32,000 nt of DNA from Erysipelothrix larvae (GCF_001545095.1 NZ_CP013213.1:2370001-2402000), one strand, 5' to 3'; shown: positions 5,032 to 29,522, numbered from the stretch's first letter. Notes: a model not told the origin generated them from the sequence alone. Made by a program: numbers and translations.

Positions 5032-5047
5032 AGTTATCTCCTTTACG

Positions 5048-6271: not shown

Positions 6272-6309
6272 CCTATTTCTCCTTTTTTACCTTATATATT
6301 AGCACTAAA

Positions 6310-7781: not shown

Positions 7782-8860
7782 AATCCTTGCTCCAAAATTT
7801 CACGTTGTTCTTGTTCTAATAATGCATCAACAATTTCACCCATTCGACCTTCCATAATCATATCCAGTTTTTGAAGTGTTAACCCAATACGGTGGTCACT
7901 CACTCTATTTTGCGGATAATTATAGGTACGAATCTTCTCTGAACGATCGCCTCGTCCTACTTTAGACGCACGCTCTTGGCTTTTCGCTGCATCGCGTTCA
8001 CGTTGATGTTCTTCAAAGACACGTGCACGAATGATTCGCATCGCCTTATCTCGGTTATCATGTTGAGAACGGCCATCTTGACAGTTCACACTGATTCCTG
8101 TTGGTTTATGGGTAATTCTTACTGCTGAATCAGTTTTATTAACGTGTTGTCCACCCGCACCACTGGCACGGTGTGTTTCAATTACTAAATCATTTGGATC
8201 AATATCAATTTCATCATCATCAACATCTGCCATGACTAAAACAGTCGCTGTTGAAGTATGGATGCGTCCTTGTGTTTCTGTCTTTGGCACGCGTTGTACA
8301 CGATGTGCACCCGATTCAAACTTAAAGTGACGGTAAGCATCATTCCCTTTCACGACAAAAGAAATCATCGTGAATCCGCCTGCTTCAGATTCTGTTGCTT
8401 CAAGCACTTCAATCTTTAGACCAATACTTTCTGCATAGCGTGAATACATGCGGTATAAATCACCGGCAAAGATGTTTCCTTCATCACCACCGGCAGCCCC
8501 TCGTATTTCCACAATTGCATCGTGGTCATCTGCTGGATCTCTTGGGATTAAAAGTACACGTAATTTTTCAATACTTGTTTCAATTTGTTCTTGATACTGG
8601 GCCATTTCTTCTTGCGCAAGTTCTACAAGTTCTGGTTCATCACCAATCTCTAACATTTCCTTCGCTTGCACATAAAAATCATGGCTTTCTAAATATGTAT
8701 CGTAAAGTGACACAGTCTCACGCATCCCTGCTTGCTCACGTCCCAACTTCATCAGTTGTTTTGGATCGCTTGCAACTTCAGGTTTCATGAGTTCTTCATT
8801 AATTTCCTCATATCGCCCTTTGATACCATCCAAGCGATCCTTCATCGTTTTATCCATCAT
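7778..8860 (-). CDS. prfA: Peptide chain release factor 1
   Basis: 360 aa with [17 protein letters not shown] (RF1-type PxT tripeptide) and [19 protein letters not shown] (GGQ). Confidence 0.97.
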
Positions 8861-9480
8861 TTTACTTTACTCAACTCCTCTTGAATCTTTTGAAGACTCG
8901 GTTTTCCATCGACTTCATGGTGATGGCGACAACGTGCTTCATACGCTTCACTTGCACCTACAAGTACAATTGGGTCATTGTAAGATGCGGGCTTACCATT
9001 CACGAGTCGTTGTGTCCGTGTTGCAGGGCAACCACATACTGTACATACTGCAGTAAGCTTGGTTACAAACTCTGCATGGGTTAATAATGTTGGAATTACA
9101 CCAAATGGTTCGCCACGGAAATCCATATCAAGACCCGCAACCATTACACGCAATCCTTTTAAAGCTAAATAATCACAAATAGCGATAATGTTCTCATCAA
9201 AGAATTGAACTTCATCAATCGCAACTACATCAATACTGTCATCAATGTATTTTAAAACATCCAACGAATTATCAATTGGAATACTTCTTACTTGACTTCC
9301 CGCATGCGAAACTACAAATTCTTCTGCATACCGATTATCAATTGCAGGCTTGAATACCAGCACATTCTTCTTTGCAAATTGCAGTGTATTGATTCGACGA
9401 ATTAATTCTTCGGTTTTCCCTGCAAACATACAACCTGTAATTACTTCCAGATATCCTGGATTATACTGATGATACATCAT
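8857..9480 (-). CDS. tdk: Thymidine kinase
   Basis: 207 aa with P-loop [21 protein letters not shown] and the Zn-ribbon C..C...C ([13 protein letters not shown]...RCRHHH). Confidence 0.95.
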
Positions 9481-9523
9481 TTCCTTAGCACCTCTACTCT
9501 TAACTATTTTACCCTAAAAGACC

Positions 9524-9547
9524 AAAAAAAATAAGGGCTGAACCCTT
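9524..9547 (-). terminator. Rho-independent terminator of rpmE
   Basis: Minus-sense AAGGG-UUCAG-CCCUU followed by A + U8 (A-run 9524-9531 on plus). The stem overlaps the rpmE stop codon. The stem is short (5 bp). Confidence 0.55.
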
Positions 9548-9752
9548 ATTCTTTTATACCATATTTTTTGTTGAACTTATCAATACGTCCAGCTGCGGCT
9601 GCAAAACGTTGTTTTCCTGTGTAGAATGGGTGGCAATTTGAGCATGTATCAACGCGAACTTCCTTCGCAGTTGAACCAACTTCAAATTCAGCACCACATG
9701 ACGTACATACAGCTTTTATCTTATTGTATTGAGGATGAATTCCTTGTTTCAT
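9546..9752 (-). CDS. rpmE: 50S ribosomal protein L31 (Zn-ribbon type)
   Basis: [50 protein letters not shown]..., 68 aa. The start is set at the internal ATG 9750-9752, which has SD AGGAG (9764-9768). The CxxC...CxxC pair is present. Confidence 0.9.
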
Positions 9753-9773
9753 ATCGACATGTCTCCTTTTCGC

Positions 9774-9794
9774 CTTGGCTGGCCTCCAACCAAG
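9774..9794 (-). promoter_or_regulatory. 5'-UTR stem-loop of rpmE
   Basis: 9-bp stem (9774-9782/9786-9794) with a 3-nt loop, 5 nt upstream of the SD. The single non-Watson-Crick position is G.U in the minus (mRNA) sense but C.A in the plus sense, so the structure is strand-specific. Confidence 0.4.
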
Positions 9795-9808
9795 ATTTGT
9801 GCTAAACA

Positions 9809-9837
9809 ACAATACCACATCATTCACTATAAATCAA
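9809..9837 (-). promoter_or_regulatory. Candidate sigma-A promoter of rpmE
   Basis: Minus-sense TTGATT-17 nt-TATTGT with TGn extension (tgGTATTGT). The predicted TSS is near 9802, giving a ~50-nt leader that contains the hairpin. Confidence 0.5.
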
Positions 9838-9988
9838 TAGATAACCCTTGATTAATTTGAATCTCCCTCGTTAACAATCCAAACACGTCTTAGATTCAGC
9901 ACATAAGCGTAATCTTTGAAGAAATGACAATAAACTCATTTTTTTACACACTTACTTGCCTAAGTGTTACAGTGCACCACCAAATAGA

Positions 9989-10636
9989 TTATTTATTACT
10001 TATTTCATTATTTAGTTTTATCCAAAGTGCCGGTCGAACGCCTCCTTGACCATCACCATTGCGAAAAGGACCGCCAACATTCCCCTTAAATATATTGTTG
10101 CCTTGTATCCCAATGTTACCATCTCCGTGGATATACACCGCTTTGATATTATTGCGACCTGGGGAACGAAGCCACCACCACCAAACATAGCCATCTTCAC
10201 CCTCAAATCCTGCACTTCGCTTTGGATTATTCGCATCTTTTCTTTCAAACCAGTATCGCTTATTTTTTCTTGGATGATATAGATTTCCACTGCTGTCTCC
10301 AAAATAACGACATGCAACCTCTTCAATGCTCAATAGAAAGACATAATCGACTGTATCCAAACCACCTTTTGTGCCATACCATTGATTATCAAGATTCTCT
10401 ATTTGAGTCGGTATAATTTTTTGCTTCTCGATGTCAGAGAAACGATTGTAAAAATCACGATTGAGATATTGTCGCAAAGCGCAGTTTTCCCATGTCACAT
10501 CAACATACGCATCATGGTAAGCGTGTTGCTCGATGATATGTTTTGTAATGATCAACGCTGAATCGTTTTTGATATCCAGCACGTTCCATTCAAGTCCCCC
10601 AAACATCAAGGTCGAGCCGATTTCTAAATGTTTCAT
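9989..10636 (-). CDS. DUF6273-like protein (no signal peptide)
   Basis: 215 aa with FGGLEWNVLDIKNDSALIITKHII, VTWENCALRQYLNRDFYNRFS, VWWWWLRSPG and GVRPALWI. This is the motif set I associate with DUF6273 of gut Firmicutes. Its start lies 2 nt after the merR stop. Confidence 0.65.
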   Translation of the reverse strand: MKHLEIGSTLMFGGLEWNVLDIKNDSALIITKHIIEQHAYHDAYVDVTWENCALRQYLNRDFYNRFSDIEKQKIIPTQIENLDNQWYGTKGGLDTVDYVFLLSIEEVACRYFGDSSGNLYHPRKNKRYWFERKDANNPKRSAGFEGEDGYVWWWWLRSPGRNNIKAVYIHGDGNIGIQGNNIFKGNVGGPFRNGDGQGGVRPALWIKLNNEISNK

Positions 10637-10638
10637 GT

Positions 10639-11640
10639 TTACTTCTCCTTAATAGGGAACAATAAATCGAGTTGGAGGTCATTCATTGATCCATTTTGAG
10701 CATAATTATAAAAATTCAGTATTTCTTCAAATCCTTGTCCTGGAAGGGTTTCATTCGATTCCCATCGTGGTGAACCCCAATCATTGCTGTACTTATCCGA
10801 TGCATTCACCCATTCTCCCAACCGTCTCCAGTCTTCAAAATCCCACGCTCTTAGGACATGCGCTGCATAGAGACCTCCTTTGAATGTTCGTTTTATGAGC
10901 GGTTTTAATACCGTCATATCATCGGGTATTGACACCCACGTCTCATATGCCTTTGATGGAACCCCCACACCTTGAAACTCTGGTGAGCAATCAAATCCAA
11001 AGCTTCTCAGATCGGGTTTGATTTCAAGCAGATTATTTTCCGCTATGAACTTACGGACCATTTCCATTGATTTTCCTTCTGTATCTTCTCCAGTTGCTAA
11101 AGCTGCTGCAACAGTCATGGGTGGCAAATAGACAATACGGACATCATTATCTTGCATTTTCATCAGATCTTCGCTTGATTTGCCTAAATCTTCCATTGTT
11201 AAGGTTCCAATCGAGTTCTCTACTTGATTCTGTGAATAAGAAAGGGCATTAATAGAAAAAAATACACTCTCATCATCAAGAATATTTAAAGAAATATCAA
11301 CGGTATTGCTGATATCTTCGACAAACCGAACCAGAATCTCTTTTACAGTCGATAGTGCACTTATTTCTACATCCAATTCGTTAATGTTTTGTTGGAAGAT
11401 TTCCACAGTTTTTGATGCATCCTCATTTTCAAGAATCATACTGATTTGCTTAACTGGGATTCGTAGTTTGCGTAATATTATTATTTGTCTCAGCTTTTTT
11501 ATCGAAGTTTCATCATACACTCGATAAGCATACCCTTCTTTTCTATGGCTTTGAATTAATCCTGCCTTTTCATAGTACCTTAGCATTCGTGGTGATATTC
11601 CATATATTTTTGACACTTGACTTATCGTTTGTAGTTCCAT
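10639..11640 (-). CDS. MerR-family transcriptional regulator with C-terminal GyrI-like effector-binding domain
   Basis: MELQTISQVSKIYGISPRMLRYYEKAGLI is a MerR HTH, followed by a coiled-coil linker and a ~170-aa C-terminal domain of BmrR/GyrI-like type (VRIVYLPPMTVAA...GGLYAAHV). The start is set at ATG 11638-11640 (SD GAGAGG at 11647-11652) rather than the TTG at 11655. Confidence 0.85.
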   Translation of the reverse strand: MELQTISQVSKIYGISPRMLRYYEKAGLIQSHRKEGYAYRVYDETSIKKLRQIIILRKLRIPVKQISMILENEDASKTVEIFQQNINELDVEISALSTVKEILVRFVEDISNTVDISLNILDDESVFFSINALSYSQNQVENSIGTLTMEDLGKSSEDLMKMQDNDVRIVYLPPMTVAAALATGEDTEGKSMEMVRKFIAENNLLEIKPDLRSFGFDCSPEFQGVGVPSKAYETWVSIPDDMTVLKPLIKRTFKGGLYAAHVLRAWDFEDWRRLGEWVNASDKYSNDWGSPRWESNETLPGQGFEEILNFYNYAQNGSMNDLQLDLLFPIKEK

Positions 11641-11667
11641 GTTAATACCTCTCAATCTGATGTACCC

Positions 11668-11698
11668 ATTATAAAGTATGACACGGTGTTCTAGTCAA
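11668..11698 (-). promoter_or_regulatory. MerR-type promoter (19-bp spacer) of the merR-DUF6273 operon
   Basis: Minus-sense TTGACT-agaacaccgtgtcatactt-TATAAT. Both hexamers are near-consensus and separated by 19 nt, the over-long spacer characteristic of MerR-activated promoters. A short dyad ACAC-c-GTGT lies in the spacer. Confidence 0.6.
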
Positions 11699-11705
11699 TT
11701 AATTT

Positions 11706-11756
11706 ATAAAAAAAATCTATTTGAATCCGTTAATCAATAACTGCATCAAATAGATT
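11706..11756 (-). terminator. Rho-independent terminator after the fucO remnant / end of the glycosidase operon
   Basis: AATCTATTTGA (11714-11724) pairs with TCAAATAGATT (11746-11756): an 11-bp perfect stem with a 21-nt loop. In the minus sense it is followed by U8 (A-run 11708-11715, which overlaps the stem base by 2 nt). Confidence 0.7.
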
Positions 11757-11766
11757 GAATTAACAA

Positions 11767-11939
11767 TTACATTAAAGCCTTGTATAAACCAATGATTTCT
11801 TCAATGTTTGTTTCTCTTGGGTTCCCTGGTGTACATACATCTCTGAATGCATCTTCAGCAATCTTATCAAGATCCTCTGCCTTAACGCCTAATCCTGAGA
11901 TTGTTGCAGGAATTCCTACATCTTTGATTATTTTATCAA
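11767..11939 (-). pseudogene. 3'-terminal fragment (~57 codons) of a lactaldehyde reductase (fucO) allele
   Basis: It encodes DKIIKDVGIPATISGLGVKAEDLDKIAEDAFRDVCTPGNPRETNIEEIIGLYKALM*. The intact fucO C-terminus at 23617-23789 reads DKLSKDVGIPATISELGVKAEDLDKIAEDAFRDVCTPGNPRETNIEEIIGLYKALM*. No upstream fucO sequence is present; the M of the 74-aa track ORF is fortuitous. Confidence 0.88.
11768..11939. repeat. Direct repeat copy A (fucO 3' end)
   Basis: Aligns without gaps to 23618-23789 (offset 11850). I count 5 mismatches in the first 159 positions (11782, 11788, 11827, 11894, 11914) and 4 more in the last 13 positions. Similarity is lost beyond 11940. Confidence 0.9.
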
Positions 11940-14491
11940 CTTTTCCTAATGTAAAATTCATGTTCTCCAGGCCCAAGTAAATGTTCTTCATTATTCGGTA
12001 AAACTAACTTTGCATTCGCGTTAAAAGGAACTGTAATTTTGAACTGTAAATTTAGTTTATTATCATAGCCCCAATAACTTTTATATAACCCATATTCTGA
12101 TTCAAAACTGCTATCAATATACTGGAGAGATTGATGAGGATTTGGTCTTATGGTCATAAAAGTTTCTTCACTCATATCTGGATTAAATCCGCAGACTTGC
12201 TGATACATCCATTGTGCAATACTACCATATGCGTAATGGTTCATACTATTCATTTGTGTTCCACTTATTGAACCATCAGAATTTAAAGAATTCCACCTTT
12301 CCCATATGGTTGTAGCCCCCAGATTGACTTGATATAACCAGCTAGGATATCCTTCATTAAGCAGTAATTTGTATGCGAGATCATTTCTGCCAACACTTGT
12401 TAGTGCGGGGCAAATTAGATGAGTCCCAAGAAATCCAGTGTTTATGTATCCATTATTATCTTCAATTTCTTTTACAATCCCTGCTTTGAGTTTATGCTCT
12501 GATTTCTCAGGATAAAGTCCAGTGTGAATTAGAGTAGCAAATGCAGTTTGTGTTGGTTCAATGACTAAGCTTCCACTAGTATCAAAATAAAAATCAATAA
12601 AAGCTGATTTAATGTTGGCCGCTAGTTCTTTAAATTCATTTTCTCTTTCATCGCCTAACTCTCGCGCTGCTTTCCAACATAAATTTACTGACAGATAATA
12701 ATATGAAGACGCCAAAAATTGAATGTCTGTCTTTCCTATTGGATTGTTTATATTTCCATTATCCAAAGCCAACCAATCACCAAGATGCTTGTCATTTTGC
12801 CATAGATAAGAAACACTATTTTCATTAACCCTTTGAGTAACATAATCTACCCAACCTGTCATCATACTATAGTTTTCACTCAGCATTTTTTTATCTCCAT
12901 AAATCTCGTATAAAGTCCAAGGAAGAACAGTTGCCACATCACCCCAACCACACGCTCCATTTGTTATATAGAAGGGGTTTATCCCATCATGTTTAGGGAT
13001 TTTCGGCAAAGGAGAAAAGAATGGAATTGATCCATCAAGTAGTTTTTGTTCTTCTCTAAGACTTCGTAAGTAGTGTCTGAAGAAGGCTTGACTATTCATG
13101 TGAAAACATGCGGATTTTGCAAAAACTGTAACATCACCTGTCCAACCTACTCTTTCGTCTCTCTGCGGACAATCAGTTGGTATATCTAGAAAATTACATC
13201 TTTGTGATCGCATCGTATTTTCAATTAATTGATTGACTTTAAAGCTTGCAGTCTTTATAGTTCCTGTTTGCTCTATTTTTGACATTATGTGAAATCCAGT
13301 AAAGTCTATATTATCTATACTATCTGTGCTTTGAACTTTTGCATATCTGAACCCATAATATGTAAAATGAGGTCTTACTATCTCATTATTTCCATTAGAT
13401 ATATATGAGAACTCTGCTTTTGCACTTCTAAGATTATCATTATAAAATTCATTGTTTTGAAGTAATTCACCATACTGTACTTCTACTTTTTGGCCATGTT
13501 TTAGTTTGCCTTTTAACTCAATCCAACCGGTTATCATTTCGCCAAAATCTAATATCAAATACCCATCCTCATGCATAGTTTTTTTTATAGGTTTGATAGA
13601 TTTTTCTTTAATTACAGGTGGATTCGAACGTTCAATTAGCAGCTCCTTAGAATCATCGAACTCAATAACATTTATTGTCTTACAGTTTAGAGTTGTATTG
13701 ATGTGTTCACCTTTGTAAATTCCATTAGATAAAACATATGATTCCTTTGCTTCCCATGTCTTATCAGTGATAATTACATCTTCTTTCCCAGAGTGATATG
13801 TTACTCTTAATTCCGCAATGCACTTTTTAGTATCACCATATATATTTGGTCTGTTTTCATCAAATCCAAATTCACCTTTATACCATCCCTCACCTAATAT
13901 AATAGATAGAAGATTTTCACCTTCAATAAATTGATTCGTTACGTCATAGGTTTGATATTCATTAATCAAATCATATGAATGATACCCCGGTTGAAGATAT
14001 TCATCTCCTACCTTTGTATTATTCAAATACGCCTCATATAACCCAACACCATAAATATATAGTCTTGCATTTAATACATTGTCATCTATACAGAAATTTT
14101 TGAACAGTATTGGCATTCTATTTGAATCATCTACAACCCCTATCCATTTTGCTATCCAAGGATCTTTAATTTTACCTGTTTCAAACCAAGTAGTTTCACT
14201 CCATACCTCTTCTGAATCAGTTTTGATATACACTCGCCAATAATAACGAGTGTAAGCAGACAATGATAAATCTACATATATGTTTGGTAGTGGATAAGAC
14301 ACAAGTTTACCACTATCAAATACTGTATATTTCATTTCTGAATCTAAAGACACTTGTACCTGGGTGATCAAACTATTCTTTCCGATTGCACCCTTCACTT
14401 TCCAGGACAATTTTATGTACGGAAAATCATTTCCAAGTGGCCTATCAATTTGATTGGTTTTCAGACCATAGATTTTAATTCCTTGAGTCAT
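11936..14491 (-). CDS. Alpha-L-rhamnosidase, glycoside hydrolase family 78 (cytoplasmic)
   Basis: 851 aa with the N-terminal block ARLYIYGVGLYEAYLNNTKVGDEYLQPGYHSYD and the catalytic-domain motif DIPTDCPQRDERVGWTGD, both typical of bacterial GH78. No signal peptide. The start overlaps the GH3 stop (TAATG). Confidence 0.9.
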   Translation of the reverse strand: MTQGIKIYGLKTNQIDRPLGNDFPYIKLSWKVKGAIGKNSLITQVQVSLDSEMKYTVFDSGKLVSYPLPNIYVDLSLSAYTRYYWRVYIKTDSEEVWSETTWFETGKIKDPWIAKWIGVVDDSNRMPILFKNFCIDDNVLNARLYIYGVGLYEAYLNNTKVGDEYLQPGYHSYDLINEYQTYDVTNQFIEGENLLSIILGEGWYKGEFGFDENRPNIYGDTKKCIAELRVTYHSGKEDVIITDKTWEAKESYVLSNGIYKGEHINTTLNCKTINVIEFDDSKELLIERSNPPVIKEKSIKPIKKTMHEDGYLILDFGEMITGWIELKGKLKHGQKVEVQYGELLQNNEFYNDNLRSAKAEFSYISNGNNEIVRPHFTYYGFRYAKVQSTDSIDNIDFTGFHIMSKIEQTGTIKTASFKVNQLIENTMRSQRCNFLDIPTDCPQRDERVGWTGDVTVFAKSACFHMNSQAFFRHYLRSLREEQKLLDGSIPFFSPLPKIPKHDGINPFYITNGACGWGDVATVLPWTLYEIYGDKKMLSENYSMMTGWVDYVTQRVNENSVSYLWQNDKHLGDWLALDNGNINNPIGKTDIQFLASSYYYLSVNLCWKAARELGDERENEFKELAANIKSAFIDFYFDTSGSLVIEPTQTAFATLIHTGLYPEKSEHKLKAGIVKEIEDNNGYINTGFLGTHLICPALTSVGRNDLAYKLLLNEGYPSWLYQVNLGATTIWERWNSLNSDGSISGTQMNSMNHYAYGSIAQWMYQQVCGFNPDMSEETFMTIRPNPHQSLQYIDSSFESEYGLYKSYWGYDNKLNLQFKITVPFNANAKLVLPNNEEHLLGPGEHEFYIRKS

Positions 14492-16173
14492 TAGTATTTT
14501 AATTCCTTTCTACCACAGAAAGGATCAATAGGATTATTACCTTTAAAGTCACTATCTCCTAAGACTTTTTTTACAACCATCTCAATGACATAATCATTAT
14601 TTGAATATGCGTTTATATAGGTTTTTATCATGGGTACATCAAACAGATGGTAAGGGTTGGCAAGACTAATGAAAATCACAGGTATTTCACCTGCAAACCA
14701 AGGTATATTATTCCCCTGTCCCCAAAACGTGTACCAATTAATCCTATTGGTTGTCTTATTACTTGCATTCTCTACATTCCCCATGTAAATGACTAAATCA
14801 TATTTTTCTTTTAGGTCTCTCACATTATCGACACCATTATTAAAATTCTCTTTTTCATAAAGGATGACATTGAATCCCGACTTTTCTAATTCTAGTTTTG
14901 TTTTCTTAATTACCCTTTCATTAGAATCAAAATCACCAATTACTTCAAGTAATACATTCTTATATCTGTCAGAATTGATTGGCAATAAATTCTGTGTATC
15001 TTTCACTAAAGTAATTGATTGATCAGCAAGTTGAATTGCCCATTCAATATGTTTTTTACATTTTAGAACATTCAACCCTTCTATAGGTGGTATCAATGTG
15101 CCATTAGTTTGCTTTTCATTCAATTTCATACTTGCTTTTAAAGCTAAGATTCTTCTGTTAGCAGCTAATAATCTTTCTTCAGATAATAATCCATTTTTAT
15201 ATCCTGATAGCATAAATTTGTAATCTTCTTCCAAGTCTTTATTAAAAAGGAACATGTCGCATCCGTTTTCTATAGCTGTCGGCACTGAAATGTTTCGTGG
15301 CATTGCAGAAGCAAAGCCAACCATAGGCGTAGCGTCAGAAATGATTAAACCATTGAACTTAAGTTTATCCCTCAATAGATTGTTTAGTAATTCTTTTGAC
15401 AATGAAGCGGGAATAATTTTGTCTTTATCTTCTTTGTTGAAATAGGTCTGGTATGCAGGAAGGGCAATATGTCCAGCCATGATAGTTTTAGCACCTGATT
15501 TAATCATTCCCTCATACACTATTCCAAATGTATTATCCCATTCTTGAATAGATAAATGATTAACTGAAGTTAGCAAGTGCTGATCTCTTTCATCAATACC
15601 ATCTCCAGGAAAATGTTTGACAGACACTTCAACATTATTTTCATGAGCTGCTCGCATATATTCTTTAGCATAGTCTAAGACAACTTTGGGGTCGTTTCCA
15701 TAAGTTCGAACATTTGTAATCGGATTTCTAAACTCAAAGTCAATATCTACCACCGGAGCAAACGCCCAGTTTATCCCTAAAGACGCTGCTTCTATACTAG
15801 AAACTTGACCCAAACGGTAAGCATATTTCTTATCTCCTGCTGCAGCACACGCCATTTGCTTTCCAAAAGGGGTTCCATCAATTGCTGCCCCATCTCCCCC
15901 TGCTTCTATATTAGAAGGTATTAATAAAGGTATCTTACTGTGCTTTTGAACGAAAGAGAATGTGTTGTACATTTCCTCACCAACTCCGTCTCTAAAAAAT
16001 AGTCCTCCAATATGAAAATTCAACAATGAATTTAGATACTCAGGATTTGTGGAATATCCTATAGGACAAAATAATTGCCCTATCTTTTCCTCAAGCGTCA
16101 TTTTATTCAAGGTGTTTTCTACCCACTCAACTTCTTTATTTGTTAAATTAAATGGTTCCATTTTTAAATTCAT
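14491..16173 (-). CDS. Glycoside hydrolase family 3, NagZ/YbbD-like subfamily (beta-hexosaminidase/beta-glucosidase or phosphorylase)
   Basis: 560 aa. KHFPGDGIDERDQH has the same spacing as B. subtilis NagZ KHFPGHGDTDVDSH (Asp-His dyad). The nucleophile context is FNGLIISDATPM. It has two domains and no signal peptide. SD AGGAGA is present. Confidence 0.85.
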   Translation of the reverse strand: MNLKMEPFNLTNKEVEWVENTLNKMTLEEKIGQLFCPIGYSTNPEYLNSLLNFHIGGLFFRDGVGEEMYNTFSFVQKHSKIPLLIPSNIEAGGDGAAIDGTPFGKQMACAAAGDKKYAYRLGQVSSIEAASLGINWAFAPVVDIDFEFRNPITNVRTYGNDPKVVLDYAKEYMRAAHENNVEVSVKHFPGDGIDERDQHLLTSVNHLSIQEWDNTFGIVYEGMIKSGAKTIMAGHIALPAYQTYFNKEDKDKIIPASLSKELLNNLLRDKLKFNGLIISDATPMVGFASAMPRNISVPTAIENGCDMFLFNKDLEEDYKFMLSGYKNGLLSEERLLAANRRILALKASMKLNEKQTNGTLIPPIEGLNVLKCKKHIEWAIQLADQSITLVKDTQNLLPINSDRYKNVLLEVIGDFDSNERVIKKTKLELEKSGFNVILYEKENFNNGVDNVRDLKEKYDLVIYMGNVENASNKTTNRINWYTFWGQGNNIPWFAGEIPVIFISLANPYHLFDVPMIKTYINAYSNNDYVIEMVVKKVLGDSDFKGNNPIDPFCGRKELKY

Positions 16174-16226
16174 TATTATTCTCCTTATATATGCATTCAG
16201 CCAAAGAATTTATCCTTGGCCGAATA

Positions 16227-16865
16227 TTAAAACAATATTTTTAATATATCTTTAATTGAACTCAGTTTGTAAGTAGTTTTACAATATGAAGCTGCTTCTC
16301 CGATTCCTGCGCAGTCAATCCCGCCATCAAGTGCAGCATCTATTCCAGCTACAGCATCTTCTACAACAAGACATTCGGAAACATTTACCCCTAATCGTTG
16401 TGCAGCTTTTGTAAACACTTCTGGATTTGGCTTAGAATAAGTAATATCTGTCCCATCACATATAACACTAAAGCTATTCATTATCCCTAATTGCTTCAAG
16501 ATAAACTTAGCATTTTTACTCGACGAACCAATTGCTAACATAACTCCTTTAGCACTCAAGCTCTCTATGGTTTCGCTAACTTCTGGAGATAAATTTGATT
16601 TGTCAATTTGCTTTAGTAACTCAATGTAAATCTTATTTTTTTTATCAGCAATTAATTCTTTTTCTTCAAGAGAGAGCACAACTTCATTTTTTTTAAGTAT
16701 AATATCGAGACTTTCCATTCTACTAATACCTCGTAATCTATTGTTGATACTCTCATCAAAGTGTACATCCAAATCATCAGCAATTTGCTTCCATGCAATA
16801 AAATGGTATTCATCTGTAGAACAAATTACTCCATCTAGATCAAATATTACAGCTTTATATTTCAT
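16227..16865 (-). CDS. pgmB: Beta-phosphoglucomutase (HAD superfamily)
   Basis: 212 aa. MKYKAVIFDLDGVICSTDEYHFIAWKQIA, LRGISRMESL, IGSSSKNA and VVEDAVAGIDAALDGG track Lactococcus lactis beta-PGM (FDLDGVITDT..YHFRAW, LKGVSREDSL, ASASKNG, GLEDSQAGIQAIKDSG). The start overlaps the upstream permease stop by 11 nt. Confidence 0.85.
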   Translation of the reverse strand: MKYKAVIFDLDGVICSTDEYHFIAWKQIADDLDVHFDESINNRLRGISRMESLDIILKKNEVVLSLEEKELIADKKNKIYIELLKQIDKSNLSPEVSETIESLSAKGVMLAIGSSSKNAKFILKQLGIMNSFSVICDGTDITYSKPNPEVFTKAAQRLGVNVSECLVVEDAVAGIDAALDGGIDCAGIGEAASYCKTTYKLSSIKDILKILF

Positions 16866-17844
16866 TATTCCCTCTCTTCTTGATTAGATTTATTATTCTT
16901 CCTATTGCTTTCTCATTGTTAAGATAAATTAAAAAAGCTACCAATATTATTGCAGTTACTATTTGTTGAATGGATGAATCAACATTTACTCTTGCATACA
17001 TAAGTGAAATAAATGCTGTAGTCACTGCTCCCATTAAGTAACCAATATTTGCATTTGTAAATCTTCTTATATACCCCCCAATAAACATCGGTAAAAAAGC
17101 TGTAAACATCACGCCAATCGATGCAAAGTTTAGTGCCATTTGAATGGTTCCTGTGTGCGTGGCACTAATAAACCCCACAACCCCCATCAACGAGCCAGAA
17201 ATAACATAGCAAACTACAGCATTTTTCACTTCTCTTATTCCTGTAGTTACAGCTACTTTTTGCCCTGTCTGCAATGCTCTGTAAGAATATCCAAATTCTG
17301 TATAATCAAATACAAGAGTAACAAGAAGTAAACTAATTGATATTATTACCAAGTAGTTTATCACATTAGGAAAACTGGTCAGCTCAATGTTAGTAACAAA
17401 AGATACTCCAAAGCCATTGGTGATGACAAATGCAATACCTTCATATAGTAGTGCAACTCCAAGAGATATAATTATCGGCGGTAGTTTTACCACTACATAG
17501 GTCAGCCCTGAAATTAAACCTAATATTGCTCCAACAAATACTGATATAATCAACATTGTCCAGACTGATAAATTGGCATTCAAAGCAATAGTAGCGCTTA
17601 TAACCGATGATAACAATGCAACAGAACCTATAGAAAAATCGAATCTTCCAGAATCTAAATTAATGGAGAGCGCTATTGTTGTTAACATTACAGATGCCGT
17701 TGATCTAAAAAACACAATATAATTTCCTGCTGTTTCAAACAATTTAACCCCTTGAAATACGCAGATAAGATTAACAGCAATAAATGTTGTTAATGGTATA
17801 CTTGTTGTTCCTATAAATCTATTAAAAAGGTTTTTTTTATTCAT
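16855..17844 (-). CDS. ABC transporter permease, CUT2 (RbsC-like) type
   Basis: 329 aa, about 9-10 hydrophobic helices, with DSGRFDFSIGSVALL equivalent to the RbsC GGIDLSVGS motif. SD GGAGAG is present. Confidence 0.8.
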   Translation of the reverse strand: MNKKNLFNRFIGTTSIPLTTFIAVNLICVFQGVKLFETAGNYIVFFRSTASVMLTTIALSINLDSGRFDFSIGSVALLSSVISATIALNANLSVWTMLIISVFVGAILGLISGLTYVVVKLPPIIISLGVALLYEGIAFVITNGFGVSFVTNIELTSFPNVINYLVIISISLLLVTLVFDYTEFGYSYRALQTGQKVAVTTGIREVKNAVVCYVISGSLMGVVGFISATHTGTIQMALNFASIGVMFTAFLPMFIGGYIRRFTNANIGYLMGAVTTAFISLMYARVNVDSSIQQIVTAIILVAFLIYLNNEKAIGRIINLIKKRGNNEI

Positions 17845-17876
17845 TGTCTCTCCGATCTTGTTTTTTTATAAAAACT

Positions 17877-17911
17877 AATCTTTATCCCCTTTGTTTTTGG
17901 GGATAAAGATT
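17877..17911 (-). promoter_or_regulatory. Intra-operon stem-loop between the binding-protein and permease genes
   Basis: AATCTTTATCCCC (17877-17889) pairs with GGGGATAAAGATT (17899-17911): a 13-bp perfect stem with a 9-nt loop. In the minus sense it is followed by AGUUUUUAUAAAAAAA, then SD GGAGAG and the ATG at 17844. Confidence 0.6.
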
Positions 17912-17928
17912 ATTTGTGATTTTACTTT

Positions 17929-19116
17929 TTACTGTGTCAAGTTTCTGATTTGATCGTAACTATACTGAGATACAAAATCTGAGAACTCATCGTAACTTGC
18001 ATTTAATAACAAACTAAGCATTTCTTTTGAATATGCAGGCGCCTCAACTGAGCTATCTAGTGCGTATAATCTTTCAAATTCTTCAAATGAGGTCGCAATC
18101 CAATATCCTTGACTCAGGGCTAATGCTTCATTATTATCAGTTCTAACAGGATTCCCTTGAACTGCTCGCAACGTTGCGATAAATATAGGACCAATACTTG
18201 CTGAGAACTTTCCAGCCAAATAATCAAGAACCCCATTTTCCATTGCCTCACCATATGCTGAAGCAAATGCATCTACACTGGCAATCTTTACATTTGATCC
18301 TTGTACTGCTGCACCAAAGAAATCAGAACCGTTTCCTACAGCTAGTAATACCTCTAGTCCAGGTAATTGCGCCATTTGCGTACACATTGCAAACCAAGCA
18401 TCATCCATATCATAACCGCCTACATATCCTAGTATTTCTACATCGCCTACTGCCCCTGTATCTATCGACCCATCAGCATAAATTTGACCCACAATACCTT
18501 CCACTGTTGCCTGACCTTTATAGTTTGCTCCCTCACCCCCTGCTTTTACCATTGCATATAACATTCCTGCAGCTCTGTAAATATGCATATCTGTGTAGTA
18601 CGGTATCGCTCCACCAAAAATTGCAAAATTACTTTTACCTTGGTCTAGATAATGATTCGCCATGTCATAACCAGTTTCAAACTCTCGTTCTAATGATGGA
18701 CCTATCGCTCCAACATAATATTCATAATTCTTAAATTTATCATATTCTTCGTCCGTCAATGTTCCTGTAGCAACTGCGTAGAATATACCTTGCTTTTCTG
18801 CTAGCTCAATCTGCGCCGAACGATCAAATGACGAAAACGATATTACTGCCTTTACATTGTTTGTTATAAATGTTTCAAACGCAGATATTTCTTGTGCTGA
18901 ATCGACTAACTCATCTGAGTAAATGAACTCAACATTAAATTGATTTTGAATATATTCTGTAAAATAATTTCTGAACGCAAGTGCTTCTGCTGATGTTGTG
19001 TCAGATACTAAAACTCCAATTCTTACTGTATCCGCCTCGTTAGAGTCGCCACATCCTGTTAGTAGCAAACTAACACTAACTAGAAGACACATAATTAACT
19101 TTATATTTTTTTTCAC
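17929..19116 (-). CDS. ABC transporter substrate-binding lipoprotein (type I periplasmic-binding fold)
   Basis: 395 aa. (M)KKNIKLIMCLLVSVSLLLTGCGDS is a lipoprotein signal with lipobox LTGC. GTG start at 19114-19116 with SD GGAGGA 6 nt upstream. The gene sits between the two permease genes. Confidence 0.7.
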   Translation of the reverse strand: MKKNIKLIMCLLVSVSLLLTGCGDSNEADTVRIGVLVSDTTSAEALAFRNYFTEYIQNQFNVEFIYSDELVDSAQEISAFETFITNNVKAVISFSSFDRSAQIELAEKQGIFYAVATGTLTDEEYDKFKNYEYYVGAIGPSLEREFETGYDMANHYLDQGKSNFAIFGGAIPYYTDMHIYRAAGMLYAMVKAGGEGANYKGQATVEGIVGQIYADGSIDTGAVGDVEILGYVGGYDMDDAWFAMCTQMAQLPGLEVLLAVGNGSDFFGAAVQGSNVKIASVDAFASAYGEAMENGVLDYLAGKFSASIGPIFIATLRAVQGNPVRTDNNEALALSQGYWIATSFEEFERLYALDSSVEAPAYSKEMLSLLLNASYDEFSDFVSQYSYDQIRNLTQ

Positions 19117-19150
19117 CTTTTTTCCTCCTTATATCTTAGGTGTATGATTT

Positions 19151-20122
19151 TTATCTCGGAAGTATTTTTCTTCTTTGATTACTCGTTGCAAGATAAACAA
19201 CCAGAATAAATATTATTGCTTTTACAATTTGATTTATTCCAGAATTCATATTAAACATAACCATTATCTGACTTAGAAAAGTCATAGAAAACGATCCTAC
19301 TATTGCTGAATATATTTTACTTCTTGCACCTCCTGAAATAGGCATCCCCCCGAATACTATCGCAATAATCACATCCATCCCAACACTTGATGCACTATTC
19401 CTAGTTAATGTTGGGGCGTACACTATTAATAGAAATGCTCCAATTCCAACTCCTAATCCTGATAATGCAAACGAAATAATAGATATTTTTTTACTTGATA
19501 TACCTGTTAACCTTGCACAGATAGGATTTCCTCCGATAAACTTTTGCATTCGCCCTAATCGCGTAAAATTGAATAAAAACGTACAAAGTCCTGCGAAAAC
19601 CATGAGCGTTGCTATCTTAAACCATTCAGTGTTTAGATTTTGCACCGAAGAAGCAGAGATTGACACGGTTGAGCCAGTTCCATTTACACTAATCAATAAC
19701 AAAACAATTGCATTTAGGACACTTAGCATTGCTATTGTTGTAACGAAAACAGGGAGATTAAATATTGAAGCCAAAACTGAATTGAATAATGCAATAGAAA
19801 CTGCGACAAGAATACATACAAGAAACATTAGTAGAATACTATTTGTTGCATTAAATGTAATTGCACCTAATAAAGCACTAACCGTTACAGAAGCACCTAA
19901 ACTTATGTCGAAAGAACCTAAAGAATATATAAATATAGCACCAGTAGCAACGATTGCTACTACAACAGATTGATTTAGGATTGCCTTAAGCCCAAATAGT
20001 ACATTAATATTTCTTAAACTTCCTATAACGAAAAACATCATAGATAATGCAATTAACCCAAATATAGGTGCGAAGTTCATAATTCTATTTTTTATATTTA
20101 TTTTTTTCATCTTTTTCTCCAC
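19151..20122 (-). CDS. ABC transporter permease, CUT2 (RbsC-like) type
   Basis: 323 aa, polytopic, with YSLGSFDISLGASVTV as the RbsC-like motif. It directly abuts the ATPase gene stop. Confidence 0.8.
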   Translation of the reverse strand: MEKKMKKINIKNRIMNFAPIFGLIALSMMFFVIGSLRNINVLFGLKAILNQSVVVAIVATGAIFIYSLGSFDISLGASVTVSALLGAITFNATNSILLMFLVCILVAVSIALFNSVLASIFNLPVFVTTIAMLSVLNAIVLLLISVNGTGSTVSISASSVQNLNTEWFKIATLMVFAGLCTFLFNFTRLGRMQKFIGGNPICARLTGISSKKISIISFALSGLGVGIGAFLLIVYAPTLTRNSASSVGMDVIIAIVFGGMPISGGARSKIYSAIVGSFSMTFLSQIMVMFNMNSGINQIVKAIIFILVVYLATSNQRRKILPR

Positions 20123-21643
20123 CTATATCATGTAATGAATAATATCCGATTCGCTAAGATTCTCATTTCTCATTAATTCTTTCGATATTTTCCCATCTTT
20201 CATCACTATTAACCTATCAACCATGCCAATTAACTCTGTTAATTCTTCAGAAATAATAACAATCGTTTTTCCTTCTTTTTTCATTTCATAAATTAATCGA
20301 TACATAGCTTGCTTAACTCCAACATCTACCCCTCTAGTAGGGCAGTCAAGAATTAGAATTTCACTTCCTCTACCGATCCATTTCCCAAATACTACTTTTT
20401 GCTTATTACCTCCAGATAGTGCTGAAACGCGTTGATTCATACTTGAGCATTTAATACTTAATAAATTGATTTGACTTTTTACGTATTCTATTTCTCGCTT
20501 TGATGTTATAACGCCAAATTGATTCACCATTAAGTCTAGTCCTGCAATAGCAATGTTATCTCTTATACTTGCATCAAGATTCAACGATTCAACATCTCTA
20601 TCTTTTGAAACATAGCCAATATTGCTTTTTATCGCATCACGTTCCGTTTTTATAGTTTTTCCATTTGCTATAACTTTCCCTTTATCAGGGGATAATGACC
20701 CAAACAATATTTTCCCCAATTCATGCATTCCACAGTGTGATAACCCACCAACTCCTAATATTTCTCCACTATGAATTCTTAAGTTTATATCCCTCACATT
20801 ATTGGAATAACAAACATTCTTTAGTTCAACAACAACATCACTTGAAGTTGTACCATCATAATCAGTACGGTAATAACTTCCTTCTAACTCTCTACCAATC
20901 ATTGCTGTTTTTATCTTCTCTTCATCAAAATCCTCTTTTTTAAAATGTGTTATTATTTTCCCATCCCTTAATACGGTTAATGAATCACAAACTTCTGTGA
21001 TTTCATCTAAATCATGAGAGATAAATATAACTGATTTGTTATTATTTCTCATATCTTCTATAAGCTTATAAATTATCTCTCGTCCCCCTTGAGATAACGC
21101 AGTTGTCGTTTCATCAATAATTAGTAAATCTGGTCTTTTGCTCATTACTTTTGCGATTTCTACTAACTTTCTATCTTGAATACTTAACATGCCGGTCATT
21201 ATAGAAGCATCAATATGTGATGCATTAATTTCATCTAAAGCCTTTTGCGCACTGCTTATCATTTTTTTTCGATTGATTAGCCCAAACTTATTTAATCTGT
21301 TCCTAATCTCTTTAAACTCACCACTTTCTGCCAAATATATATTTTCCGCAACACTAATCCCTGGTACAGTTCCACTTTCTTGAACTATCATACCTACACC
21401 ACATTCTAACGCTTCAATCATTGAATTCGGATTCCAATTATTGCTATTAAATAACATGGATCCTTTATCAGCATTTTGAATTCCTGATAGAATTGAAGTA
21501 ACGGTTGACTTCCCTGACCCATTCTCTCCAACAAGACCTAGTACTTCTCCTCTATTTACCGAGAAGCTCACGCTATCTAATGCTACAGTTGTGTCGAAAT
21601 TTTTACATATGTTTTTAACTTCTACTATAATATCTTTGTTCAT
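20123..21643 (-). CDS. Sugar ABC transporter ATP-binding protein with fused tandem NBDs (RbsA/MglA-like)
   Basis: 506 aa. NBD1 has Walker A GENGSGKST and Walker B LLIIDETT. NBD2 has a degenerate Walker A GVGGLSHCGMHELG, signature LSGGNKQKV and ILILDCPTRGVD. This architecture is typical of CUT2 importers. Confidence 0.9.
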   Translation of the reverse strand: MNKDIIVEVKNICKNFDTTVALDSVSFSVNRGEVLGLVGENGSGKSTVTSILSGIQNADKGSMLFNSNNWNPNSMIEALECGVGMIVQESGTVPGISVAENIYLAESGEFKEIRNRLNKFGLINRKKMISSAQKALDEINASHIDASIMTGMLSIQDRKLVEIAKVMSKRPDLLIIDETTTALSQGGREIIYKLIEDMRNNNKSVIFISHDLDEITEVCDSLTVLRDGKIITHFKKEDFDEEKIKTAMIGRELEGSYYRTDYDGTTSSDVVVELKNVCYSNNVRDINLRIHSGEILGVGGLSHCGMHELGKILFGSLSPDKGKVIANGKTIKTERDAIKSNIGYVSKDRDVESLNLDASIRDNIAIAGLDLMVNQFGVITSKREIEYVKSQINLLSIKCSSMNQRVSALSGGNKQKVVFGKWIGRGSEILILDCPTRGVDVGVKQAMYRLIYEMKKEGKTIVIISEELTELIGMVDRLIVMKDGKISKELMRNENLSESDIIHYMI

Positions 21644-21666
21644 TTCATATCCTTCCTATCGATGAC

Positions 21667-21680
21667 AGTAATCGCTTTCA
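21667..21680 (-). promoter_or_regulatory. Candidate CcpA catabolite-responsive element (cre) in the operon leader
   Basis: Minus-sense TGAAAGCGATTACT matches TGWNANCGNTNWCA at 13 of 14 positions. It lies about +46..+59 relative to the predicted TSS. Confidence 0.4.
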
Positions 21681-21732
21681 GACAGATTTAAAAAATTTTA
21701 TTGAATCTGATTAATGTAATTTGTATATATTA

Positions 21733-21761
21733 ATTATATTTTTAATTATATGAGATTCCAA
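21733..21761 (-). promoter_or_regulatory. Candidate sigma-A promoter of the ABC/pgmB/GH3/GH78 operon
   Basis: Minus-sense TTGGAA-17 nt-TATAAT. Confidence 0.55.
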
Positions 21762-21821
21762 TGTTCTATTTTGGTCTATTAAATTGACGTTAATTAATCT
21801 AAAGTTTAAATTTAAGACTAT

Positions 21822-21850
21822 TTGACTATCTTTAATTGATATTTTATAAT
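21822..21850 (+). promoter_or_regulatory. Candidate sigma-A promoter of the AraC-family regulator gene
   Basis: TTGACT (21822-21827)-17 nt-TATAAT (21845-21850). SD AGGAGA is at 21884-21889 and the ATG at 21895. Confidence 0.6.
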
Positions 21851-21894
21851 ATTCTTGAAATTGCTTTCTTTTTTTAGTAATTCAGGAGAACAAT

Positions 21895-22941
21895 ATGAAC
21901 TTTGATACACTAGTAAATAACTTATATCACTATAACTCTGACGAAGAGTTTTATAAGCAGTATTATTATGCAAAACAACAACCGTATTCGCTCGATAAAT
22001 TTTTAACTGAGTTGGATTTTGATTTTGTAAAAAGAAACCATTTGATAATACCTGAGATTGCTTCAACGATACCCCCTCGTTACGAGGATTCGTTTTTCTT
22101 TGGAAAAAATCCAAATGCTTCTATCCTTGTTTTACGCCATAACAGATTTAGTCCTGCCATTGAACATAGCCATACATTTTTTGAGCTACTTTACGTTTAT
22201 GATGGGACATGTATTCATACTATTGATAATCAAACTGTGATACTTAAAAAAGGGGATATATGTATTATCCCTCCTGGGGTAACTCATTCAGTTTCAGTCT
22301 TCGATGATAGTATTATTTTCAATTGTATTATAAGGAAAGCTACACTTCATAACGTATTCTTCAATTTTTTAAGAAACACAAATATTCTTTCTGCTTTTTT
22401 TCTAAACAATATTTACTCAGAAAAAGGAAGCACCTACATTGTATTTCATACCGGGAATGATAATGAAATCCGCAATAGTTTTCTATATATGTATTGGGAA
22501 ACAGTAAATGAATCACTTTATTGGGATCAAATGATTGGTTTTACACTAATGTTAACTTTTGGTATTTTAATTCGTAATTATGACAAAAGTGTAGAATTAC
22601 CTTCGCCAGCAAACAAAAGTGATATCAAACGATATGAAATTTTGCAATATATGCAAGACAATTTTGCAAGTATTTCACTTGATGATCTGGCATCCTATTT
22701 TCATTACACTCCTGAGTATATGTCGAAGTTAATCAAGAAAGTTTTTGGAAAAAACTACACATACATACTTCAAGACATTAGGTTAGAAAAAGCGAAGATA
22801 TTACTATATGATACAAATCTTTCTATCTCTAACATTTCAAACCAAATTGGATACGAAAACACAGAGAGCTTTATACGGTCATTCAAAAAGAAGAATCATA
22901 TGACCCCAACAGAATATAGGAAGAGTGGATACACACTCTAG
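21895..22941 (+). CDS. AraC-family transcriptional regulator (cupin sensor + HTH), divergent from the glycosidase/ABC operon
   Basis: 348 aa. The N-terminal cupin is HSHTFFELLYVYDGTCIHTIDNQTVILKKGDICIIPPGVTHS. The C-terminal AraC HTH pair is ISLDDLASYFHYTPEYMSKLIKKVFG...ISNISNQIGYENTESFIRSFKKKNHMTPTEYRK. Confidence 0.85.
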   Translation: MNFDTLVNNLYHYNSDEEFYKQYYYAKQQPYSLDKFLTELDFDFVKRNHLIIPEIASTIPPRYEDSFFFGKNPNASILVLRHNRFSPAIEHSHTFFELLYVYDGTCIHTIDNQTVILKKGDICIIPPGVTHSVSVFDDSIIFNCIIRKATLHNVFFNFLRNTNILSAFFLNNIYSEKGSTYIVFHTGNDNEIRNSFLYMYWETVNESLYWDQMIGFTLMLTFGILIRNYDKSVELPSPANKSDIKRYEILQYMQDNFASISLDDLASYFHYTPEYMSKLIKKVFGKNYTYILQDIRLEKAKILLYDTNLSISNISNQIGYENTESFIRSFKKKNHMTPTEYRKSGYTL

Positions 22942-22956
22942 TCACTCTAAAAATTG

Positions 22957-22989
22957 AAATTATGCTAGATGAAATTAAGCATAATTTTT
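22957..22989 (+). terminator. Rho-independent terminator of the AraC-family gene
   Basis: AAATTATGCT (22957-22966) pairs with AGCATAATTT (22978-22987): a 10-bp perfect stem running into TTTTT. Confidence 0.65.
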
Positions 22990-23527
22990 CCTCTAGAGCC
23001 TTAAGAATCATAGTAATCCACTTTTTATCCCCTAGCTATCTTAATATCTAGTCTGTTAGTAATAAATTTAATACGCATCTAGTCTTCTGTGATTATCTAT
23101 TTTCCTATTTTAACATTTATAACAACCCTTCTTTTTGCAAAACGATAAGTAATTTCAAGTTACATTCACAATAAATGAGAAACTTTATATGTACGCAGTA
23201 GCCGAGTTTCTATATACTATTTTCCTAAATAAATTAGACAATAAAGATACTATTAATCCAACTTATTGAATCGCTGTCCTTTGTCTCCTAAATTTGCCAA
23301 CTGCCCAAAAATATTATTGATATGAGAAATCATCAGCTTCATTTTAAAATCTCATTGTTGTTTTTGGTATGAATTCCAAATAGTTCCTAAGTCGTACTCA
23401 GTAATTCGTATATTCATAAATCTTCAAGTAGCAACGATAGATCTAGCCGTTGTGATACCTAGCACACTTTAAATTATTGGTTCTTAAAAAAGATATATAC
23501 CCACAAAACAGCATAGAAAACACATTT

Positions 23528-28652: not shown

Positions 28653-29522
28653 ATGAACTATTGGGAAAATGCAAATCATGCTTGGACAAAGGATTCAAAA
28701 AGGGTGATTAATACACCCTCAAATAAAACAAAATCACTGTTTAATTACATCCAGGAAATTGGTCACTTCAAAGCTTATCAACCTTACTATACTGAACGCG
28801 CAAATCTTCCTTCCTATTTGATGAAATTAACACTTAGTGGAACTGGGCATTTAAACTATAAAGGTCAAGACTACATCTTGGATCAAGGCGATATTTTCTT
28901 CATAGATTGTCAGCACTATCAGCATTACAAAACAATCAGTGATATCCCATGGGAAATGGACTGGATTCATGTGTATGGCGGAATTACCTCTCAACTTTAT
29001 GAAGAATACAATAAGGATGGCAACCCTGTATTTCATACCAACGCGCTCCCTGAAGAAAATACAATTCATCATTTAGTTCAAACACTGATAAAAGATCAAA
29101 GTAAAGCAAATGCTCGCACCGACTTTCACTCATCAGTGAAAATACACGAGCTCCTAAACGAGCTCATCATTCAAAAGTATCACTTGGATTTTAGTATTGA
29201 TGATATCCCACAATATATCCTTGAACTCAAAGAGTATTTAGATTCTCATTTCCATAATGTGATCACACTAAACGATTTGGAACACTTATTTCACTTAAAT
29301 AAGTATCAAATAAACAAAGACTTTTCAAAGTATATTGGACTGCCTCCAATTGATTATCTGATTACTAAGAAAGTCTCACATGCTAAAGATCTCTTGCGCT
29401 ACACTGATCTATCAATTCAAGAAATATCATTAAACATCGGCATCGATAACTTTGCGTATTTTAGTCGATTATTTAAGAACAAAACTGGCATGACACCATC
29501 TTTCTTTAGAAAAGAGGGCTAG
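28653..29522 (+). CDS. AraC-family transcriptional regulator, divergent from rhaBAD-fucO (probable rhamnose-responsive activator)
   Basis: 289 aa with an N-terminal cupin (GDIFFIDCQHYQHYKT). The C-terminal AraC HTH pair is ITLNDLEHLFHLNKYQINKDFSKYIG...IQEISLNIGIDNFAYFSRLFKNKTGMTPSFFRK. SD AAGGAGG is present. Confidence 0.8.
   Translation: MNYWENANHAWTKDSKRVINTPSNKTKSLFNYIQEIGHFKAYQPYYTERANLPSYLMKLTLSGTGHLNYKGQDYILDQGDIFFIDCQHYQHYKTISDIPWEMDWIHVYGGITSQLYEEYNKDGNPVFHTNALPEENTIHHLVQTLIKDQSKANARTDFHSSVKIHELLNELIIQKYHLDFSIDDIPQYILELKEYLDSHFHNVITLNDLEHLFHLNKYQINKDFSKYIGLPPIDYLITKKVSHAKDLLRYTDLSIQEISLNIGIDNFAYFSRLFKNKTGMTPSFFRKEG

Follow-up and report, generated by a model that had tools for sequence, protein, structure and literature searches.

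A GH3 enzyme paired with beta-phosphoglucomutase in Erysipelothrix larvae points to a probable phosphorolytic route for decorated beta-glucosides

Glycoside hydrolase family 3 (GH3) includes beta-glucoside phosphorylases, a type of enzyme known since 2018 (PMC8950772), for which beta-glucose 1-phosphate (beta-Glc1P) is the donor (PMC11442529; PMC8950772). According to a 2022 review, only two GH3 phosphorylases have been characterised, BglP and Cellulomonas fimi Nag3, both using beta-sugar 1-phosphates (PMC8950772). The Withers and Hallam laboratories obtained BglP (GenBank AUG44408.1; PDB 5VQD/5VQE) from a metagenomic screen of a mine-tailings bioreactor (Macdonald et al., J Biol Chem 2018). 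Nag3 is a GH3 enzyme with a histidine acid/base that uses phosphate and gives beta-sugar 1-phosphates (PMC8950772; Macdonald et al., J Biol Chem 2015), but it prefers to cleave N-acetylglucosamine (GlcNAc)-anhydroMurNAc for peptidoglycan recycling (PMC8950772). In the GH65 modules for maltose, trehalose, kojibiose, and nigerose, phosphorolysis likewise yields beta-Glc1P, which beta-phosphoglucomutase (beta-PGM) converts to glucose 6-phosphate at a saving of one ATP (PMC11442529); these GH65 enzymes are inverting and act on alpha-glucosides. Here, we analyse a 32-kb stretch of the Erysipelothrix larvae genome (the window), in which a GH3 gene lies beside a beta-PGM gene in an operon that also encodes an ATP-binding cassette (ABC) importer and a GH78 alpha-L-rhamnosidase. 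In contrast to the GH65 enzymes, this GH3 protein is predicted to be a retaining enzyme for beta-glucosides. We consider it likely that the operon encodes a cytoplasmic phosphorolytic pathway for decorated beta-glucosides, with beta-Glc1P passed from the GH3 enzyme to the beta-PGM.

The GH3 protein, whose N-terminal catalytic domain matches PF00933 over residues 26 to 344 (E = 9e-57), aligns end to end with BglP, likewise a two-domain protein of about 560 aa. The BglP structures 5VQD/5VQE, named "beta-glucoside phosphorylase BglX," are its best solved relatives (E = 8e-143, residues 3 to 555), with 42 to 43% identity, against 27% and E = 3e-41 for the Bacillus subtilis NagZ enzyme YbbD. Foldseek placed an AlphaFold model of the protein closest to 5VQE (E = 5e-45), then to YbbD (5e-27), and then to classical GH3 enzymes; the model was built from a shallow alignment (mean predicted local distance difference test [pLDDT] score, 69.6) and was used for ranking folds only, not for geometry.

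An earlier note on this DNA had recognised an Asp-His motif of the NagZ type in the 560-aa protein and had asked for an alignment to place it. In the HMMER alignment, KHFPGDGIDERDQH (residues 186 to 199) stands in register, column by column, with KHFPGHGDTDVDSH of YbbD, so that the dyad D197/H199 falls on D232/H234, and the same columns match BglP. D280 aligns with D318, the nucleophile of YbbD, which is replaced by N in crystal chains 3LK6/4GYJ (D318N), and is Asp in 73 of the 75 aligned sequences (BglP and YbbD counted in). The corresponding motif of BglP is KHFPGDGVDYRDQH. Q198 aligns with the Gln of the BglP DQH (residue 205, counted from the alignment offset) and with S233 of YbbD; the D-Q-H triplet is thus common to BglP and the window protein, whereas NagZ enzymes carry D-S/T-H. 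DQH occurs in 73 of 76 family open reading frames (ORFs) from related loci, and KHFPGDGx[DE]xxDQH is essentially invariant across them. With BglP the window protein has in common KHFPGDG..RDQH, the nucleophile Asp, and 99 near-invariant family columns. The likeness to YbbD extends to the N-terminal barrel followed by an alpha/beta domain, the dyad, the nucleophile, and K-H-F-P-G, but YbbD is a secreted lipoprotein and a GlcNAc-specific hydrolase with H226 where the window protein has D191. Candidate clade-specific residues from the alignment include D191, D194, R293, and R334. Macdonald and colleagues reportedly found in 2018 that BglP becomes specific for GlcNAc instead of glucosides when a Gln is changed to Ser; the Gln concerned would be that of DQH.

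These data bear directly on the public name of the protein, which is beta-hexosaminidase or beta-N-acetylhexosaminidase in NCBI and UniRef. A role as a beta-N-acetylhexosaminidase in cell wall recycling would agree with this name and with the fact that the best NCBIfam match is the NagZ model, but the match reaches just 105 bits against a cutoff of 207, and the Ser or Thr of the NagZ motif is replaced by Gln. Nor was any gene for GlcNAc or N-acetylmuramic acid (MurNAc) seen among the clusters examined in neighbouring loci, where the recurrent genes are those for GH78, beta-PGM, and rhamnose catabolism. We therefore rejected a role in peptidoglycan recycling, which we regard as extremely improbable. 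The gene context, the DQH motif, and the relationship to BglP all speak against a hexosaminidase, and the public name is probably wrong. By its sequence, the protein is a member of the known BglP clade and a predicted phosphorylase, not a new kind of enzyme.

The neighbouring gene encodes a genuine beta-PGM, as had been claimed for it. The product, a HAD protein, scores above the curated equivalog cutoff of TIGR01990 (Table 1) and matches solved beta-PGMs at E values of 4e-42 to 1e-33. In the Lactococcus lactis enzyme, catalysis depends on a DxD nucleophile/acid pair, an Arg of the cap domain, a Ser/Lys phosphate site, and an ED Mg site. All of these features are found in the window protein, and the mutase residues are conserved beyond it. 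Among 61 syntenic homologues, every one of which matches TIGR01990 at an E value of 1e-50 or better, D9, D11, T17, H21, R49, S114, S116, N118, E169, and D170 show no variation and K145 hardly any.

The association of the two genes is not particular to E. larvae. We collected 80 genome loci with GH3 relatives at 47 to 73% identity, together with 10-kb flanks, and clustered their ORFs (81 loci with the window included). By tblastn, 69 of the 81 loci have a beta-PGM gene no more than 10 kb from the GH3 gene; the two genes share a strand in 67 loci and are immediate neighbours in 35. Of the twelve loci lacking a beta-PGM gene, roughly half are interrupted by contig ends. The hosts span many Bacillota families, among them Lachnospiraceae, Butyrivibrio, Mediterraneibacter, Holdemania, Paenibacillus, Caproicibacter, Acholeplasmatales, and Vallitaleaceae, plus one Treponema metagenome-assembled genome. 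At least 10 gene orders separate or join the pair, the main ones being beta-PGM-GH3 (as in the window), GH3-beta-PGM, GH3-short GH78-beta-PGM, GH3-GH78-MBL-beta-PGM, and GH3-esterase-beta-PGM; GH3-ROK-beta-PGM is found in gut metagenome contigs. The GH3/beta-PGM pairing is, in short, very strongly conserved.

The earlier note had pointed out that GH65, the usual partner of beta-PGM, is missing from the window. This is indeed the case: in a survey that listed all ORFs of at least 100 aa and checked most of those not overlapping a larger gene against Pfam or NCBIfam, no GH65 gene was found, and no other ORF of the window is long enough to encode one. GH65 was also not detected in the 80 related loci by a Pfam scan of one representative per cluster of otherwise unassigned ORFs of at least 560 aa, and the recurrent ORF clusters of these loci were all identified as something other than GH65. 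The neighbourhood census that had been suggested thus came out as 69 paired loci of 81, with GH65 detected in none.

The pairing extends to BglP itself. A metagenome scan, from which all our information on the BglP context is taken (none of the 80 genome loci has a protein more than 47% identical to BglP), identified Joint Genome Institute contig L081 (region 2335-4652), whose GH3 product matches BglP with 100% identity across all 557 residues of the crystallised protein. Directly downstream is a HAD gene for which beta-PGM is the best model, at 189.3 bits against the cutoff of 189.4, and which passes the subfamily model. Contig L097 confirms the beta-PGM-family gene after BglP, and an identical BglP is also carried by L090. 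The gene order at the locus is histidine kinase, SBP_bac_1 binding protein, two BPD_transp_1 permeases, BglP, the beta-PGM-family gene, and an MFS transporter. As in the window, then, a beta-PGM-family gene adjoins the phosphorylase, an ABC importer is encoded upstream, and the enzyme lacks a signal peptide; the locus differs in the class of its importer, in the histidine kinase, in the MFS gene after the mutase, and in the absence of GH78 from the roughly 2 kb visible downstream. Since a beta-PGM-family gene directly follows BglP, the GH3/beta-PGM pairing is the native context of the type enzyme and not a new design. The novelty that the earlier note had seen in this combination consequently does not hold, the more so as the enzyme class dates from 2018.

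How far do these observations carry the proposal that the GH3 protein is a phosphorylase feeding the beta-PGM? The phosphorolytic route is well supported by the full-length homology to BglP and by the synteny. The argument from the His dyad, on which the proposal had originally leaned, is insufficient by itself because NagZ hydrolases share the dyad and because PMC10913872, in summarising Franceus 2021, attributes phosphate recognition in GH3 phosphorylases to three further active-site positions. This attribution is also one of several points that weigh against our interpretation. The level of identity to BglP leaves room, as judged from sequence, for a shifted balance between phosphate and water; the AlphaFold model adds nothing on active-site geometry, its pLDDT falling below 50 at residues 188 to 205 (active-site loops); the GH65 search covered 32 kb of the E. 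larvae genome, so a GH65 gene elsewhere is possible; and the counts of loci overstate the number of independent observations because many of the 81 loci are related. Two more points concern the substrate. The type of importer encoded here usually carries monosaccharides, which is awkward for diglycoside uptake, and the review table records BglP with aryl glycosides only (PMC8950772), so that the type enzyme itself gives no firm lead to a natural substrate.

Some of the same points would favour a GH3 enzyme that acts mainly as a hydrolase (beta-glucosidase) in vivo, with the beta-PGM serving a GH65 enzyme encoded elsewhere in the genome or acting as a sugar-phosphate phosphatase. NagZ-type enzymes with the same dyad do hydrolyse, the phosphorylase activity needing further positions (PMC10913872), and, going by the title of Ducatti 2016 as cited in PMC10286314, GH3 enzymes have been the subject of a dedicated examination for phosphorylase activity. 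Against this, the operon has been rearranged many times in distantly related taxa without loss of the link between GH3 and beta-PGM, and a merely incidental neighbour would not be retained through such rearrangements. The HAD protein, moreover, has an intact set of mutase residues and an equivalog-level score, and the closest characterised relative of the GH3 protein is a phosphorylase. We judge the hydrolase explanation to be improbable, and a GH65-dependent role of the beta-PGM was rejected in view of the conserved GH3 link, GH65 having been detected neither in the window nor among the representative ORFs of at least 560 aa scanned from the 80 loci.

The phosphorolytic pathway could operate as follows. 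A small glycoside would be taken up by the lipoprotein-dependent ABC importer. Inside the cell, GH78 would strip a terminal alpha-L-rhamnose, to be consumed by the products of the neighbouring rhaBAD-fucO genes. The beta-glucoside thus exposed would be cleaved by the GH3 enzyme in a double displacement, D280 forming the glucosyl-enzyme, the D197/H199 dyad standing in for the usual Glu, and phosphate rather than water attacking the intermediate to give beta-Glc1P; a preference of the enzyme for phosphate over water is what we infer. The beta-PGM would convert beta-Glc1P to glucose 6-phosphate, so that no ATP need be spent on a hexokinase reaction. The GH78 step should precede the GH3 step because GH3 enzymes work from the nonreducing end. 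Flavonoid rutinosides are deglycosylated hydrolytically by gut and lactic acid bacteria, a GH78 rhamnosidase acting first and a GH1 or GH3 beta-glucosidase second, with release of free glucose. The route considered here would share this order, rhamnose first and the beta-glucoside next, but its second step is predicted to be phosphorolytic.

That the glycoside would be imported whole follows from the absence of a visible signal peptide in the sequences of both the GH3 and the GH78 protein and from the lipobox of the binding protein. The fused ATPase of the importer finds its best NCBIfam matches in RbsA and AraG, both under cutoff, and together with the permeases fits a ribose/monosaccharide-type (CUT2) system. 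The binding lipoprotein has only a sub-threshold match to Peripla_BP_4, no NCBIfam match, and a best PDB match at E = 0.0075, and it appears to represent an uncharacterised family of binding proteins. All three components accompany the module, the ATPase in 57, the permease cluster in 58, and the lipoprotein in 55 of the 81 loci.

With regard to the substrate, a rhamnosyl-beta-glucoside is made plausible by the conservation of GH78 and the proximity of the rha genes. GH78, in long and short forms, is found in 52 of 81 loci; the window protein matches the six-hairpin catalytic domain Bac_rhamnosid6H at E = 2.5e-102 and PDB 6GSZ at E = 7e-126. The rhamnose catabolic genes, which the earlier note had correctly placed next door, flank the module in 10 other loci. 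Loci that lack GH78 often carry a BD-FAE-type esterase (21 of 81 loci), an MBL-fold hydrolase, or a GH43 enzyme. Rhamnose, acyl, and pentose decorations are typical of plant secondary metabolites. Taken together, GH78, the esterase, and GH43 suggest that the substrates are decorated beta-glucosides, the glucose of which bears rhamnose, a pentose, or an acyl group. The rutinoside or neohesperidoside proposed in the earlier note would be a candidate substrate of this kind. Flavonoid rutinosides would fit both the picture of a decorated glucoside and the aryl substrates of BglP, without this being proof, and whether the aglycone is a plant phenolic or something else is a guess.

Phosphorolysis might also be correct and the substrate not a plant flavonoid rhamnoglucoside but some other beta-glucoside capped with rhamnose, such as a saponin, a glycolipid, or a piece of a polysaccharide from bacteria or plants; or the ABC system might import free rhamnose, the glycosides entering by another way. 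The resemblance of the importer to monosaccharide systems, the binding protein outside any known family, and a rha cluster without another transporter in the window would all be in keeping with this, as would, at the BglP locus, the different ABC class (SBP_bac_1 with BPD_transp_1) and the absence of GH78 from the roughly 2 kb of downstream sequence. On the other hand, two glycosidases without signal peptides require that a glycoside be imported, and the importer is the sole transporter of the operon and travels with the enzymes in 55 to 58 of the 81 loci. We think a substrate or uptake route of this other kind unlikely, though by no means negligible.

Variants of the module differ in their accessory genes. 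In loci L063 to L076 (Paenibacillus, Caproicibacter, Acholeplasmatales), the BD-FAE esterase replaces GH78 in the order GH3-esterase-beta-PGM, and the divergent regulator of the esterase variant is an AraC DNA-binding region fused to a GH39-like domain (about 837 aa; 20 loci). In Lachnospiraceae (L001 to L036 and similar loci), the genes downstream of GH78 often encode a sugar-binding-domain/GGDEF protein, in 19 loci, and a methyl-accepting chemotaxis protein, in 29, which hints at signalling or chemotaxis tied to the substrate of the module in these bacteria.

The searchable literature, in a scope outside the primary papers on BglP, yielded no description of the GH3/beta-PGM pairing or of a GH78-containing module. 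The only potentially new element is thus the wider module of ribose-type importer, phosphorylase, mutase, and decoration-removing enzyme, with what it implies about the substrate. It is tempting to generalise that this conserved module reveals the physiological role of GH3 beta-glucoside phosphorylases: gut Bacillota would widely use it to break down plant aryl beta-glucosides that are rhamnosylated or acylated, for example rutinosides, in the cytoplasm and at a saving of ATP; this we offer tentatively, as a possibility that may well fail. If true, the GH3 clade would join GH65 as a major source of beta-Glc1P in nature, and the route would bear on the energy gained from dietary plant glycosides and on the release of aglycones by gut and insect-gut Bacillota. 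Alpha-glucoside metabolism of the GH65 type does not necessarily follow from the presence of a beta-PGM gene in a genome, and the module offers a concrete hypothesis on the natural substrates of GH3 phosphorylases, namely rhamnosylated or acylated beta-glucosides. The description of the host, which a 100% identical protein identifies as E. larvae, as simply an anaerobe should be amended, as PMC9662008 describes the genus Erysipelothrix as facultatively anaerobic.

The features of the module and its surroundings are listed in Table 1. The operon occupies positions 21643 to 11936 (minus strand) in the order fused double ABC ATPase, BPD_transp_2 permease, lipoprotein, second permease, 212-aa HAD protein, 560-aa GH3, and 851-aa GH78, the genes being joined by overlaps or short spacers. 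As previously noted, the second permease gene and the beta-PGM gene overlap by 11 nt, and the GH3 stop and GH78 start codons overlap as TAATG.

TABLE 1 Coordinates of the operon genes, control elements, and rhamnose genes in the 32-kb window
Feature	Position	Strand	Evidence or remark
GH78 alpha-L-rhamnosidase, cytoplasmic	11936..14491	-	Five rhamnosidase Pfam domains
BglP-type GH3 retaining beta-glucoside phosphorylase (predicted)	14491..16173	-	560 aa; homology to 5VQD/5VQE
14-bp RNA hairpin in the 53-nt beta-PGM/GH3 spacer	16194..16226	-	Minimum free energy -19.5 kcal/mol, z -4.1 against shuffles
Beta-phosphoglucomutase (pgmB)	16227..16865	-	212-aa HAD protein; TIGR01990, 224.5 bits against curated cutoff of 189.4
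Second ABC permease (BPD_transp_2)	16855..17844	-	
Substrate-binding lipoprotein	17929..19116	-	N terminus ends in LTGC lipobox
ABC permease (BPD_transp_2)	19151..20122	-	
ABC ATPase, two fused nucleotide-binding domains, RbsA/AraG-like	20123..21643	-	ABC_tran twice
Divergent intergenic control region	21644..21894		Promoter-like hexamers facing both directions
AraC-family regulator, divergent from operon	21895..22941	+	HTH_18 and AraC_binding domains
Rhamnose catabolism genes rhaB-rhaA-rhaD-fucO	28528-23617	-	Each of the four scores above its NCBIfam equivalog cutoff
Second AraC-family regulator, divergent from rhaB	28653..29522	+	

The divergent AraC-family regulator probably controls the operon; a homologous divergent gene is present in 43 of the 81 loci. 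Promoter-like hexamers lie between the two at 21761-21733 (minus strand) and 21822-21850 (plus strand) and are weak evidence, the scan overall not rising above shuffles. Neither promoters nor terminators were enriched over shuffled sequence in the scan of the window, and the boundaries of the operon therefore rest on gene spacing and synteny. The hairpin in the spacer sits between the beta-PGM stop codon and the ribosome-binding site of the GH3 gene; as no U-tract follows, it is not a classical terminator and may be a processing or stabilising element.

Just downstream of GH78, on the minus strand (9989-11655), are genes for a MerR-family regulator with a Cass2 effector-binding domain and then a DUF6273 protein. 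At the far end of the window (29679-31506, minus strand), the gene for a sigma factor of the extracytoplasmic function (ECF) type (SigV-like, below cutoff) overlaps a gene whose 449-aa product matches no family and has a single predicted membrane segment, the two possibly forming a sigma/anti-sigma pair. The remaining genes of the window are housekeeping genes, including mreB, upp, glyA, prfA, and tdk. The G+C content is 0.30 to 0.36 in the module (about 11000 to 23000), compared with 0.39 to 0.41 in the housekeeping (5000 to 10000) and rha (24000 to 28000) regions, and the closest relatives of the GH3 protein (69 to 74% identity) are nearly all labelled Lachnospiraceae or lie on metagenome contigs, with none from Erysipelotrichaceae. 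The lower G+C content and the taxonomy of these relatives suggest that the module was acquired horizontally.

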